A stretch of 64,000 nucleotides of DNA from Octopus vulgaris (GCA_951406725.2 OX597823.1:33790001-33854000), one strand, 5' to 3'. Positions 10,014 to 35,452 are shown, numbered from the stretch's first letter. Numbers and translations are program-made. Notes: generated by a model not told the origin, from the sequence alone.

Positions 10014-10420
10014 TTCAGGTCACCGCCTGGAATCGAACTTGGAATCTTGGACATATAGCATAGTGGTTAAGAGCGCAGGCTATTAACCCCATGATTCTGT
10101 GTTCGATTCCAGGCAGTGACCTGAATAATAATAATAATGATACTACTACTACTACTACTACTAATACCCCCACCACCACCACCACCACCACCACCACTAC
10201 TACTACTAATAATGATAATAATAATAATAACAATAATATCAAAAATACCTTAGGAATCAGAACCCAGGTTTGAAATTTCCCCAAGACACCTGATGAAGGC
10301 TGGAGGGTATATCAGTCAAAATGTTGTGTTAACAACAAGCAAGATGAAGACAAATATCCTTAAATAATGAAAATAATGTAAATAATGTACATAATTTTTC
10401 ATCTCTTAAATATAGAACTG
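10014..10420 (+). mobile_element. tRNA-head/(AAT)n/hammerhead element copy 1, preceded by an inverted partial head
   Basis: A-box TAGCATAGTGG and B-box GTTCGATTCC at 10056-10100; 10014-10048 is the reverse complement of the head 3' end; HHR 10285-10330 has GAAA decayed to AAAA. Confidence 0.85.
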
Positions 10421-10862
10421 TTTTAAATATTCTCTCCTGATACAGAGTGCTGACATAATGTAAATTTGGTTTTTAGAAACTGTGGTTAGGTTAATATAAA
10501 CTTATTATTTGTGCTACAGTTTTGCTTAACAGCAAAATGTTAGAGTAGTAATTGTACACAATAAAAATCTCAATTTGTTTTAACGGAAATGGTTATTATT
10601 AGCGATAATGTGATTCATTCATCCAATCTTAGTTATGAGAAAAATAATAATTAAGTTCAATTTTAATGTATTGCAATAGAGAAAGTGAATGACAAGACTC
10701 GAATCTGATAAACAGAATGAGTCGACTTATTTCCAGTTGCCATGGGATTCTTGCAATTTTGTAAATTTAAAATCCATTGGATCTTGGAAGAACTTTGAGT
10801 ATTGGATTAACACCAATCATTCATAGAAGTGGAAAGCAGTATTGTAGTAATAAAGTATGGTA

Positions 10863-10995
10863 CAGCAGTTCCCAACCTTTTCACTACCAAGGTCCCCTTT
10901 TATTTGAATGAATTTCCCCATGTACCCCATGCTTAACATACTGACGGACCCCCAGTACCACCAGGGGTCTGTGGACCACAAGTTGGGAACCACTG
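10863..10995. mobile_element. hAT (Charlie/MER5-like) MITE
   Basis: TIRs CAGCAGTTCCCAAC / GTTGGGAACCACTG; imperfect 8-bp TSD GTATGGTA/GTTTAGTA. Confidence 0.75.
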
Positions 10996-11021
10996 GTTTA
11001 GTAGTATAGTACTATAGTATG

Positions 11022-12112
11022 TCTACAAATAGACATACCATAGTACTATACTACTAAGCCAGTGGTATTTGTAGACTTTTCTAAAGCGTTCGACTCTTTA
11101 GATAGGTACAAGATGTTTGAAATACTTAAGCTCTATGGGATACCAGACAAAATCATTTCTGCCATCAGGGTCCTCTATACAGATACGTCTTCAACCATCT
11201 TAACCCCTGACGGAGAAACATCTTTCTCAATCAAAGCCGGAATACTGCAGGGAGACACACTCGCCCCATTTCTTTTCATCATTGTCGTTGACTATGTGCT
11301 GCGTATGTCAGTTGATACCATCTCTGGCAAGGGCTTTGAAATAAAACCAAGAAGAAGTTCCAGACACCCAGCTGAATACTTGACAGACACTGACTTTCTC
11401 TTTTACAATCTCTCAAACAAGCCTCAAATTGTGTAGGTCTTTACCTCAATGAGGCGAAGACTGAATATATAAACAAGTGCCTGTCCAACAGTGATTGCAT
11501 CATCCATACTCTCAACAATGCACCCTTAAATATGGTTTCTGATTACAAATATCTTGGGTCATACATATCATCATCTGGAAAAGATTTTCTAACTAGAAAG
11601 GGTATGGTCTGGTCAGCCTGTAATGACATGCATAAGATCTGGTCATCAAATCTAAGTAGAGACTTCAAACATGAAATCTTCAAAGCCACAGTCGAACCAA
11701 TTCTACTATATGGCTCAGAAACCTGGACGTTATCAAAGAAGCTTGAGAGGCAGTTGGATGGATCCTACACTCGCCTCCTTATGAGAGCTCAAAATCTCTC
11801 GTGGAAGCGCCATCCAACCAAAATGCAAATATATGGGAAACTACCACCTGTGTCATCTCTTGTGAAAGGTAGGAGAGTCCAGTTTGTTGGACATTGTTGT
11901 AGAGCTGAAAACAAGGCAATTTCTACTCTTCTCCTCTGGAAGCCATCTACTCGCAATACCAGAGGGCGCACACTCTCCTACCCTGATGTAATCGCCAGGG
12001 ATACAGGCATCCAGCAACAGGACCTCCGTAATGCCATGATGGACCATGAAGTCTGGTGTAGCATGGTAAATTCCATTGTCTCGACCACGGTCGAACAATG
12101 ATAATGATGATA
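11022..12112 (+). mobile_element. 5'-truncated RTE-clade LINE (RT pseudogene)
   Basis: FVDFSKAFDS..GILQGDTLAPFLF..YKYLGS..ILLYGSETW; catalytic ADD deleted after TDTDF; (ATG)n-like tail; TSD ACTATAGTATG at 11011-11021 and 12113-12123. Confidence 0.92.
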
Positions 12113-12997
12113 ACTATAGTATGGTGCATGCTACTCTCTCTGTCACCCTAACCACTCTGTCCCCCTTTTTTTGACTAATCCCTGACACTTATATCCTGTT
12201 CCTTTCATACTCCTTCCCCTAATAGTGTCTACTCTATTACTCTCTTCACTCCCCACCTCTCATAACTATAAATCTGTTCCTCTCATCATTTTTCCGAGAA
12301 TCATCATGGCTTCTCTCTCCAGTTCTCCCTCAGTTAGTAAAGCCTATTTAGGCCCTTAGCCTTACAGATTACAAGGCAACCTCACAAGTGCTGGTTCCAA
12401 GAAAAAAAGTACCTGGCACATTCTGTAAAATGGTTGGTGTTAGGAAGGGTGTCCAGCAGTAGAAACCATGGAAAAGCTGTGACACTGGAGCCATCACAGT
12501 CCTCCAACTCACTGATTCCTGTTGAACTGTTCAATTCATCCAGAATAGAAAACAGACTTTAAAGGATTCTCCACCTGACTGTAAAGATGCTACTATCTAT
12601 TTATATGTAACTAGGTACCACATAGCATTGGTACATACAACCTAGCTGTAAGTATGTACCCAGTGTAGATATAACTCAGTACTGTTGGTACCATTCTTTT
12701 GTAATTTTGGCACAAAGCCAAGAAATTCTGAGGGGAGGGGGAAATCGATTACACCAGCCCCAATGTTCAATTGGTACTTATTTTATTGACCCTTGGAAGG
12801 ATCAAAGGCGAAGTCAACCTTGGTGGGACTTGAATTCAGAATATTATGAGATAAATGGAATACTGCTAAATATTTTGTATGAGGTAATGACAATTCTGCT
12901 TGTCACCTTTATTGATGGTGACAAGAACATATATTTTGTCAGCTGTTGGAGTTGAGTTCACCATGTCTCACACCTGTAATATAGACCAGCAATCAAT

Positions 12998-13092
12998 CTA
13001 AGAGAAGAGCCGGCCCTCAACTACTTCCTGGTTTGCATTCCTGCCAATAATAGGCATTAATTCTTCAATCATTTCTGGAATTGCAATTGTGT
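12998..13092 (-). CDS. Possible terminal coding exon (xTIAIPEMIEELMPIIGRNANQEVVEGRLFS*)
   Basis: Good acceptor TTTTAATCCTTTCAG, open frame to TAG, non-repetitive sequence; no homology recognised. Confidence 0.25.
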
Positions 13093-33208: not shown

Positions 33209-33708
33209 TCTATATATATAAAACTGTAGTTGTGTGAGTGTCTGTCCCCTTCGATTTAGATTCCTAACTACTCCCACATTTTGCAGTGCAGTTTAACCAA
33301 ATTCGGGTATCTTATAGTTGTGATTCATATCGAGCCCGTCTGAGTATTAGCGCGCATCTACGATGAGTCTACGATTTAAAAAATAATTTAACAAAATTTT
33401 TTATTCCATTTTAATGCATAATTTTTCGTGTGTCGATGGCGTCCATGGTCACACCTGCACCCGTTTGCTTCTCCCCCTTCTTCCCTCCCTCGTGAAGCTG
33501 TGGGGAAGGGAGTGTAAGGAAATCAACGTCGTAAAGCGTTGTCAAGGAGACCAGCGCTCTTTTAGAACAACGACTTCATGGCTTGAAGACACCAAAACAG
33601 AAATGGCTAAGAAAGCCCGAATTGGCATCTATAAGGGAAGTAACTCTCTAAAAATGCTAATATAGTTATTTCCCTTTAAACCCAAGCAACGCCGGGCGAT
33701 ACTGCTAG
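33209..33708 (+). mobile_element. Non-autonomous Helitron
   Basis: A|TC start, subterminal GC-rich hairpin-like CCCAAGCAACGCCGGG, CTAG|T end, no TSD. Confidence 0.75.
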
Positions 33709-33892
33709 TATATATATATATATATATATATATATATATATATATATATATATATATATATATATATATATATATGTAGCAAAAGAGGGAGTGGTGTTTC
33801 CATGCAGGAAAAAATATAGGAAAATGTGTTATTGAAAATGCGCTTAAATTTCAAAAGCTCATAAATGTTTAAAATACATTTATTTACATATA

Positions 33893-33934
33893 TACCAAAC
33901 TAGTTTCAACAATATTTTCTGTTTATCAATGGTA
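33893..33934 (-). ncRNA. Minimal hammerhead, U3:A8 core variant
   Basis: UACCA-UUGAUAA-ACAG..UUGUU-GAAA-CUAG-UU-UGGUA: perfect stem I, palindromic stem III ACUAGU. Confidence 0.65.
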
Positions 33935-34491
33935 AAAGTGTAAAATTAGAAAAACATCAATATAAGTTTCAATGTTGACAAATCAAAATGTTTCAATTTT
34001 GATAAACTGAAATGTTTCTATATTGTTAAATTAAAATGTTTCAATGTTGATAAATCATGTTCAAAACATACATAAATACACACAAACACAGATGCGCACA
34101 CATACATACACACAAACACAGACGCGCACACATACATACACACATACACGCACACATACATACGTATGCATACGTACATTCATACATACATACAGAGAGA
34201 CATGCACACATACTTAAATATGCATATGTACATACATATATACATACACAGAGACACGCATATATACACATGCATATGTACATACATACATACATACATA
34301 CATAGAGACATGCACACATACAAACACATGCATATATACATACATACACATGCATACGTACATACCTACATACATACATACATACATTGTGCATCTGATG
34401 CCAGCATGGAAAACAGACATTAAGTGATGATGATGATGATATATACACATACATGCACATGCACGCACACGTACACACACACACACAGATG

Positions 34492-35080
34492 GTGCAGGAA
34501 TAGCTGTATGGTAAGAAGCTTGCTTCCTAACCACATGGTTCCAGGTTCAGTCCCACTGCATGGCATCTTTGGCAAGTGCCTTCTACTGTAGCCTCGGGCC
34601 AACCAAAGCCTTGTGAGTGGATTTGGTAGATGGAAACTGAAAGAATCCCTTCTTCGTATATATATATGTATATATATATATATATATATATATATATGTA
34701 TACGTATGTATGTATACATGCATATATATATATATATATATGTATATGTATATATGTATATATATATATATATATACATATATATATATATGTATATGTA
34801 TATATATATATATATATATATATATATATATATATATATATATATGTATATATATGTATATATATATATATGTGTGTGTTTGTGTGTTTGTGTTATTCCC
34901 CCCAACATCGCCTGACAACCAATGTTGGTGTGTTTATGTCCCTGTAACTTAGTATTTTGGCAAAAGAAACTGGTAGAATAAGTACTAGTCTTGCAAAGAA
35001 GAAGTCCTGGGGCGATTTGTTTCACTAAAGGTGGTGCTCCAGCATGGCCACAATTATATGACTGAAACAAATAAAAGAAT
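34492..35080 (+). mobile_element. tRNA-derived SINE family 2 (head, internal microsatellite, CR1-like tail). Other copies or parts at about 5370-5680(-), 18845-19005(-), 24255-24640(-), 28156-28525(+), 28560-28700(-), 29400-29556(+), 31705-32625(+, split), 39190-39630(-), 45200-45740(+), 59340-59490(-)
   Basis: GCTGTGTGGTAAGAAG..GGTTCAGTCCC head, CCTTGGGCAAGTGTCTT domain, tail GGTGCTCCAGCATGGCCAC..GACTGAAAC. Confidence 0.88.
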
Positions 35081-35110
35081 AGAAGAATATATATATATTT
35101 ATAATTTTCA

Positions 35111-35452
35111 TTTCTATATTTAAGAGATGAGGAATTATATACATTATTTACGGGCATTTGGTGTAGTGGTTAAGAGCACTGAATAATAATAATAATAATA
35201 ATGATAATAATAATAATAATAATAATAATAATAATAATAATAATAATAATAATAATAATAATAATAATGATGATGATGATGATGATAATAACATCAAAGA
35301 ATACCTTAGGAATGAGAACCAAGGTTCAAAATTTCCCCAAGACACCTGATGAAGGCTGGAGGGTATATCAGCTGAAACGGTGTGTTAACAACAAACAAGG
35401 TGAGGACAAATATCCGGCAAATGTAAATAATGTAAATAATGTATATATAATG
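35111..35452 (+). mobile_element. tRNA-head/hammerhead element copy 4, with its own 3' tail inverted at the 5' end
   Basis: 35111-35150 is the reverse complement of the family tail; partial head GTAGTGGTTAAGAGC; HHR 35341-35386 with U16.1 mutated. Confidence 0.85.

Follow-up and report, generated by a model that had tools for sequence, protein, structure and literature searches.

Between positions 10,014 and 35,452 of a 64,000-nucleotide stretch of the Octopus vulgaris genome (GCA_951406725.2, OX597823.1:33790001-33854000; hereafter the window, in which all coordinates are counted; the whole genome comprises 2.8 Gb), five copies of a short repeat occur at four loci. The repeat is made up of a tRNA-like head with A and B boxes, an (AAT)n tract, and a body carrying a hammerhead ribozyme motif. 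A first reading, made from the sequence alone, had assigned these copies to a separate non-autonomous element, driven by RNA polymerase III (Pol III) and mobilized by the reverse transcriptase (RT) of a Penelope-like element (PLE). Sequence comparison located the bodies of all five copies, and four heads, at the positions given by this sequence-only reading, and it also uncovered the PLE in question. However, head, (AAT)n tract, and body turn out to be the pseudo-long terminal repeat (pseudo-LTR) of that PLE, which carries its own open reading frame (ORF), and the idea of a separate non-autonomous element is not borne out.

The five bodies lie at 10241-10421 (+), 17187-17330 (-), 17515-17695 (+), 31292-31462 (+), and 35297-35447 (+), and are 87-91% identical to the copy at 17515. 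Heads were located at 10049-10124, 17415-17490, 31211-31234 (3' part only), and 35152-35177 (5' part only). At the first locus, the head (10049-10124, +) has both boxes and is 87% identical to the head at 17415. It precedes a body with a tail, which corresponds to the first codons of the PLE ORF and whose hammerhead (10285-10330) has lost its GAAA. On the left stands the 3' half of an inverted head (10015-10050, -), with a long trinucleotide tract leftwards and no body found on this arm. At the second locus, an inverted arm without tail (17187-17407, -), made up of the body and an (AAT)n tract and having an intact hammerhead core (17241-17286), is followed on the plus strand by a 7-nt leader and a full head starting at 17415, with A and B boxes (17408-17490; the RNA would start near 17409), and then by an (AAT)n tract and a body with tail (17491-17694) in which the hammerhead (17562-17606) is degenerate. 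This pair is framed by a 13-bp target-site duplication (TSD; 17173-17185 and 17695-17707, +) and is therefore one insertion. The third locus (31211-31462, +) is a solo copy cut inside the head, having the 3' part of the head, an (AAT)n tract, and a body with tail; its hammerhead core (31339-31384) is intact with a weakened stem I. Finally, a short inverted arm with tail (35109-35151, -) adjoins a forward arm without tail (35152-35447, +) composed of the 5' part of the head, an (AAT)n tract, and a body whose hammerhead (35341-35386) has lost U16.1.

Several structural claims of the sequence-only reading are thus confirmed. An inverted partial copy is found on the 5' side at three of the four loci (10015-10050, 17187-17330, and 35109-35151). 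The copy at 17415-17695 contains no run of four T (T4), the Pol III terminator; the first one is at 17724. The absence of a poly(A) or of a tail from a long interspersed element (LINE) also holds, the 3' end being internal PLE coding sequence without tail repeat. The fixed 3' end that had been described is seen on three of the five bodies and on the inverted piece at 35109, but the other two bodies end about 35 nt sooner (range 30-45 nt), and this earlier stop is a regular second end point.

In the complete element, the ORF stop is followed, after about 36 nt, by the head with its A and B boxes; then come the (AAT)n tract, the ATG, the hammerhead, the tail, and the rest of an ORF of about 2.3 kb. 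The body amounts to the first ~165 nt of the ORF and holds both the minimal hammerhead and the 3' tail. This order was met from three directions. Among the first 30 loci picked by the hammerhead core, five share a common upstream sequence, and its translation gives the end of a PLE endonuclease. When 30 loci were chosen by the thumb region of the ORF, 26 had a same-strand head downstream (in this set, L096 and L110 are arms of one insertion, and L110 and L118 represent a duplicated segment); the junction is fixed, about 36 nt past the ORF stop. When 30 loci were chosen by the ORF N-terminus, the body lay directly upstream in 23. Partial tandems forming pseudo-LTRs, with ORF end, head, body, and ORF start in succession, are found at L137, L139, L147, and L155, and body, full ORF, head, and body follow each other at L329 and L348. 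Hence, the search for an autonomous PLE matching the body, which had been suggested as a check, gave a partner whose ORF begins with the body and whose loci carry the head downstream, and mobilization by a PLE reverse transcriptase is supported. The body itself reads as the in-frame N-terminus of the PLE ORF, because at L138 and L153 no stop interrupts the frame between the ATG that precedes the hammerhead and the conserved N-terminal part of the PLE protein, because body variants of unequal length are mainly 9 nt apart, and because P0004, an intact relative of 847 aa, has a matching peptide over the hammerhead. Heads of short copies and heads linked to an ORF (79 and 31, a small sample) show no diagnostic difference; the sole position separating the two sets is position 5, where truncation blurs the short set. 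That the repeat is a PLE pseudo-LTR mobilized by the PLE machinery is, in our view, almost certain.

The encoded protein has RT motifs and a match to RVT_1 (E 7e-7) just under the curated cut-off. It has 273 homologues, and those listed have PLE-type domain sets. The GIY-YIG region was read through alignment to P0001 and P0004; the PF01541 profile gave no match to it. By eye (L122, L331, and P0001), the endonuclease has a CCHH motif and no Neptune-type linker zinc finger, whereas the ORF of the Neptune-like locus L061 has extra linker cysteines. In pairwise identities only, a natural frame of 569 aa is 68% identical to P0001, 55% to P0004, 37% to the Anolis protein P0057, which we read as PAc, and 28% to the Neptune-like L061. 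A genome search with a distant PLE protein led to this head-bearing family at all of the 30 loci examined, which makes it the only family of Penelope/Poseidon type found in the genome. A genome search with the Pfam GIY-YIG domain led to other, Neptune-like families, with the body in 0 of 30 loci. A PDB sequence search returned weak RT matches only, and a cluster look-up of the closest proteins returned no names.

These Neptune-like families are several (L031-L060, and L061 at G000:C16:20835500-20840500), and their 3' ends have a hammerhead-like motif with a U3-A8 core variant. One of them ends in (TA)n and is probably young, because it has many open frames of 781 aa. At L061, an ORF of 326 aa lies upstream of the RT ORF.

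The hammerhead of the head-bearing family displays the traits described for the minimal hammerheads of PLEs (PMC4209133; here and below, statements on published systems refer to the portions of each source that were available): a 5-bp helix I, an extra base between positions 9 and 10.1, a G10.1-C11.1 pair, and a palindromic 15.2-16.2. The earlier assignment to the minimal PLE type is in agreement with these features. The motif is intact at the majority level, but its catalytic core is kept in only two of the five window copies. The fold predicted for an intact copy contains helices I and II; the palindromic helix III needs a dimer. Searches of the window and of one body with Rfam gave no hammerhead call. 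Minimal PLE hammerheads are described as cleaving poorly alone (PMC4209133), and the ribozyme of the anole PLE as needing protein and as not required for insertion in vitro (PMC11167929). In the octopus element, cleavage would fall within the element, about 90 nt from the tail end, and the hammerhead therefore does not set the 3' end. From its sequence, it is probably a dimer-type minimal ribozyme in a coding region, weak or protein-assisted and not needed to set ends.

The family is abundant and mostly decayed. An exact 33-nt core has 2,166 matches in the genome as compared with 0 for a reversed control. Motif counts calibrated for decay lead to an estimate of ~24,000 hammerhead-bearing arms, and a second estimate, of wide margin since it derives from 3 of 44 unselected arms, gives ~32,000. 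Decay is indicated by the best 40 body matches, which are 92-94% identical to the window copy (itself excepted), and by the catalytic core, which is kept in only 5 of 44 unselected arms outside the window. Contigs of four sequencing runs (organisms A, C, D, and E) cover ORF, head, and body, with loose ends at the mapped ends; none of the runs is recorded as RNA. Since three other organisms are represented in such contigs, the arrangement is not private to this assembly.

What sets the family apart is the head. Compared with the A- and B-box consensus of Pol III-transcribed short interspersed elements (SINEs; PMC8969392), the majority head matches the A box fully and the B box at 10 of 11 positions, with a spacing of 33 nt. 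Despite decay, 66 of 110 individual heads pass a test for the two motifs. At the ORF end, the A and B motif was found in 0 of 79 outside PLE loci, 45 of which include the ORF end; two matches occur elsewhere in those loci. In a comparison with 25 distinct genomic tRNA sequences, from which most isotypes are missing, the best matches of the head are to Arg(TCG) and Arg(TCT), with a score of 55 vs. shuffle maxima of 44 and 37 (200 shuffles each). The claim of a tRNA-like head is thus upheld by the boxes and by an alignment to tRNA-Arg above shuffles, but ARAGORN, run on the window, and Rfam, run on the window and on one head, make no call on it.

The head is also the place where most head-bearing copies begin. 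To describe the ends, we used 89 arms from contig C1 selected solely by the exact hammerhead core (the first 30 listed minus one duplicate, and 60 from a list of 100). Counting from the head, 37 of the 46 arms that reach it start at -19 to +35, and 9 extend further, 7 of these past -240; the other 43 arms end in the body or in the tract. By eye, short heads mostly reach to about -7 at most. Genome-wide, the motif of the junction (-33 to -14) was counted 963 times, that of the A box 4,356 times, and that of the hammerhead 8,110 times. With the exact-match retention observed in copies spanning both motifs (junction 16/38, A box 15/38), the calibrated numbers of arms are ~2,300, ~11,000, and ~24,000, respectively. 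About 80% of head-bearing copies thus have their start at the head, as would be expected if an RNA 5' end lay at this place. In the case of Penelope itself, a promoter within the pseudo-LTR has been described and likened to LINE promoters (PMC2377424).

The ORF behind the head is poor in Pol III terminators. Of four long copies, three are free of T4 over 2.0-2.3 kb, and the remaining one contains two. In 154 in-frame segments (74 kb), 39 T4 are observed vs. 116 under synonymous shuffling. Across 77 ORF copies, no position with a coverage of at least 21 has a T4 in more than 12% of the copies, and for this reason the ORF of the source element, as it can be read from its descendants, had no T4. 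Twelve runs of three T (T3) are common to most of the 77 copies. Five other retroelement ORFs of the genome have T4 at or near expectation. For PLEs in general, 38 ORFs of at least 1.4 kb, taken from 79 metagenome loci, show no depletion (298 T4 observed vs. 280 expected), and each of the 10 control ORFs that reach about 2 kb contains at least 3 T4.

The manner of insertion can be followed on the same 89 arms. The 3' ends are bimodal with respect to the tail end, 44 being at -13 to +11 and 45 at -24 to -72. An inverted partner is present in 53 of the 89 arms; 47 of these 53 pairs have exactly one tail, 6 have none, and no pair has two. Flanking duplications are found in 35 of the 53 pairs (mode 12-13 bp, range 7-18, mostly 10-16; two of the 35 sit in low-complexity DNA and may be due to chance), as compared with 110 of 1,352 (8%) mismatched-flank controls. 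After removal of the TSD, the ends of 34 pairs are mostly at 0±2 and at -28 to -46. Microhomology at the priming sites is small and variable, with median overlaps of 3 and 1.5 nt; no conclusion is drawn from these values, which are without a proper control. Inverted 5' copies and a one-sided tail of 30-40 bp are described PLE traits (bioRxiv 2021.04.23.441226), and for an anole PLE two RT start sites and nicking of the two strands were shown (PMC11167929). The two groups of 3' ends and the TSDs observed here agree with the latter study. In the simplest reading, both nicked target strands would prime reverse transcription, one for each start site, and the two cDNAs would be joined head to head. 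TSDs had been named beforehand, together with a conventional LINE partner, among the grounds for refutation. They are indeed present, yet they are compatible with insertion by a PLE, and the LINE partner is rejected: the LINE-derived 3' end of a tRNA SINE, with its poly(A) or simple-repeat tail, does not fit an end that consists of internal PLE coding sequence without tail repeat. Circle-based propagation, as proposed for non-LTR retrozymes, was likewise rejected, partners being inverted in 53 of the 89 arms (a direct repeat occurs in L084; direct repeats were not counted systematically).

Two further observations concern the arms. Inverted arms composed of head and trinucleotide tract without body are found in the window (9894-10050) and at L003, L011, L019, and L025, and suggest that priming can also take place at a third site, within the (AAT)n tract. 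In addition, a small palindrome at the head junction (-7 to +5) spans the presumed RNA start, and full-length arm pairs are often joined through it; this palindrome may help head-to-head joining.

These data can be assembled into a model in which the repeat is the pseudo-LTR of a Penelope/Poseidon-type PLE and its tRNA-like segment acts as an internal Pol III promoter, a reading to which we give a probability of about 0.65 on the basis of the sequences. Pol III would start about 6 nt upstream of the head (-6). From a solo or a 3' pseudo-LTR, a short RNA would be made; from a 5' pseudo-LTR, the polymerase would read through the T4-free ORF into the next pseudo-LTR. The PLE protein would then nick both target strands about 12-13 nt apart and reverse transcription would be primed twice, at the tail end and 30-45 nt upstream. 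Joining of the two cDNAs head to head would yield two inverted arms, only one of which has the tail, enclosed together by a TSD. Where priming took place at the first pseudo-LTR of the RNA, the copies would stop at the RNA 5' end; such SINE-like copies would keep the promoter and could serve as templates again. The parts of the model are not equally firm. Synthesis of the short RNA by Pol III is quite probable, and that of a full-length RNA has slightly better than even odds. The most far-reaching version has about an even chance of being correct: an autonomous coding retrotransposon would have exchanged its Pol II promoter for a captured tRNA promoter, purged terminators from an ORF of 2.3 kb, been transcribed by Pol III from end to end, and become its own SINE through tens of thousands of short copies. 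A mixed model, with Pol III making the template and Pol II the mRNA, is possible.

A number of points weigh against Pol III transcription or limit the evidence for it. The isotype of the head is uncertain, since Ala, Cys, and Thr score 48-51, and the tRNA search programs, as said above, are silent. Hammerhead folds are no stabler than shuffles (z -1.3 and +0.7), and no intact full-length ORF is present among the matches listed. Moreover, Pol III RNAs are uncapped, and the head contains an ATG-GCG-TAG mini-frame ahead of the ORF start; together, these two points leave protein production unexplained. As for terminators, the 77 copies represent one lineage, and the lack of T4 therefore weighs no more than P ~0.02 (for 3.7-4.4 T4 expected in each copy) to ~0.05 (none of the 12 T3 sites being extended). 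Single decayed copies have two or three T4 (L127, L128, and L331, the latter with 3 vs. 3.1 expected), and the low-T4 control PLEs (L233, L250, L229, and L244) have no tRNA-like head and provide no independent replicate.

The strongest competitor keeps the same PLE and the same mode of insertion and has Pol II transcribe the element from a TATAA at the ORF stop, the head being a passenger in the 5' untranslated region and the lack of T4 being due to chance. Indeed, 32 of 40 copies have a TATAA that overlaps the ORF stop. It lies 34 nt upstream of the head and about 28 nt upstream of the mapped 5' ends, would place a Pol II start at the same site, and would explain the step in 5' ends. A capped RNA would account for translation, and 2 of the 38 control ORFs (1.4-1.6 kb) are also without T4. 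However, the start site equally fits the geometry of a type-2 Pol III promoter, and many tRNA genes are preceded by TATA elements. Moreover, both boxes and their spacing are kept even though no cloverleaf is called; a Pol II start explains neither this nor, in view of the control ORFs of at least 2 kb, the missing T4. We consider transcription by Pol II unlikely. The model first proposed from the sequence, in which a separate non-autonomous tRNA SINE lineage acquired a PLE-derived 3' end and the ORF-linked copies are secondary, would account for the ~4:1 excess of short head-started copies over ORF-linked ones and for their internal promoter, and Sm-alpha, a tRNA-derived SINE-like repeat with a hammerhead (PMC2770079), offers a precedent. 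Against it stand the single fixed junction at which the head is found behind the ORF in upstream and downstream pseudo-LTRs, the lack of any head position, apart from the blurred position 5, splitting the 31 ORF-linked from the 79 short copies, and the 30 of 30 loci at which the sole Penelope/Poseidon-type family found proved to be the head-bearing one; such a lineage is rather improbable. Lastly, short copies could be plain 5'-truncated products of a long RNA, piling up at the head through RT stalling or cDNA annealing at the GC palindrome (-7 to +5), and this palindrome does exist, folds as a hairpin in one window copy, and makes artefacts of some calls at -14 to -17 where two heads are joined through it, in elements that are often 5' truncated, but many ends cross to its far side (-4 to -8), including those of solo arms and of arms with a partner truncated in the body or the tract, and copies are lost 4.5-fold within ~35 nt vs. 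less than 2-fold over the preceding 170 nt or more, so that very little credence is left for it.

The window contains other repeats as well. Family D13 (5410-5579 and six more copies) has a tRNA-like start and GTAC sites and looks like a common octopus SINE. Families D16 and D18 (31709-31830, 23004-23266, 40501-40763, and 40973-41260) comprise a tRNA-headed SINE-like repeat and another dispersed repeat present in several copies. A broken RT-coding stretch of a LINE lies at 11044-12101 (+; RVT_1, E 1.5e-8), and LINE-like fragments lie at 38080-38688 (-) and 56590-57105 (+, with a PHD match). A near-perfect inverted repeat of 132 nt at 44518-44649 resembles a miniature inverted-repeat transposable element and has a weak Rfam match to a miRNA below cut-off. 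A degenerate tandem repeat with a 15-nt period occupies 25416-25972. Elsewhere in the genome, L304 (G000:C12:25267077-25270148) holds seven clustered tRNA genes or pseudogenes, most of them Cys.

Coding retrotransposons are generally taken to be driven by Pol II, or, in the case of R2, by the rDNA promoter, and a Pol III promoter is regarded as the mark of non-coding SINEs riding on LINEs. If the Pol III reading holds true, the octopus family would provide a natural retrotransposon template or mRNA made by Pol III and raise the question of cap-independent translation. The family also illustrates how SINE-like copies can arise straight from a PLE, with no separate partner. Independently of the promoter, it allows the insertion of PLEs, a poorly understood step, to be quantified cleanly from genomic copies: there are two start sites, each serving one target strand, and a stagger of 12-13 bp. 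In the full-text literature, most subscription journals and Repbase Reports being outside the scope of the search, we found no PLE with a tRNA-derived promoter and no coding retrotransposon transcribed by Pol III. The octopus SINEs OK, OR1, and OR2, reportedly described by Ohshima and Okada in 1994, are said to have tRNA-derived heads (Arg). OR2 is a CORE SINE (PMC4758252). The available sections of a 2026 octopus annotation report 190 Penelope-like families and leave hammerheads unmentioned (PMC13282606), and parts of the present family are probably already in octopus repeat libraries as Penelope or as unclassified SINE.

Among known systems, the Poseidon element PAc of Anolis carolinensis (Frangieh et al., 2024; PMC11167929) shares with the octopus element a single ORF with RT and C-terminal GIY-YIG, a hammerhead overlapping the ORF start, AT-rich targets, and a tail that lies between two RT start sites and within the initial ~170 nt of coding sequence. 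Unlike PAc, the octopus element has a tRNA-like segment with A and B boxes and an (AAT)n tract in the short gap between stop and start, its ORF has no shared T4, and most of its copies begin at the head. The minimal hammerheads of metazoan PLEs (Cervera and de la Peña, 2014; PMC4209133) have the same short helix I of 5 bp, extra 9/10.1 base, G10.1-C11.1 pair, and palindromic 15.2-16.2, and they also occur as paired motifs on opposite strands, there 100-700 bp apart. In the schistosome PLEs of that study, helix II has 7-8 bp, whereas it has 5 bp in the octopus, with GUU as the cleavage triplet; a tRNA-like promoter is absent from the hammerhead description in the part of the article available. 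The schistosome repeats Sm-alpha and Sj-alpha (PMC2770079) are likewise tRNA-derived and carry a hammerhead, but they are SINE-like and without coding capacity, whereas the octopus hammerhead is minimal and lies inside the ORF of the very element that provides the RT. Animal non-LTR retrozymes (PMC7229834; bioRxiv 10.64898/2026.07.22.740005) are also short hammerhead sequences related to PLE pseudo-LTRs. They form head-to-tail tandems and are thought to spread via circles, in contrast with the dispersed octopus copies, mostly in inverted pairs with TSDs, and the accessible text of the preprint does not mention tRNA or Pol III. As far as these sources go, the nearest precedents are thus Sm-alpha for the combination of tRNA head and hammerhead, and retrozymes for short PLE derivatives. 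The octopus family is a real, high-copy family of Penelope/Poseidon type, of known class by its structure, and the tRNA-like segment in its pseudo-LTR sets it apart.

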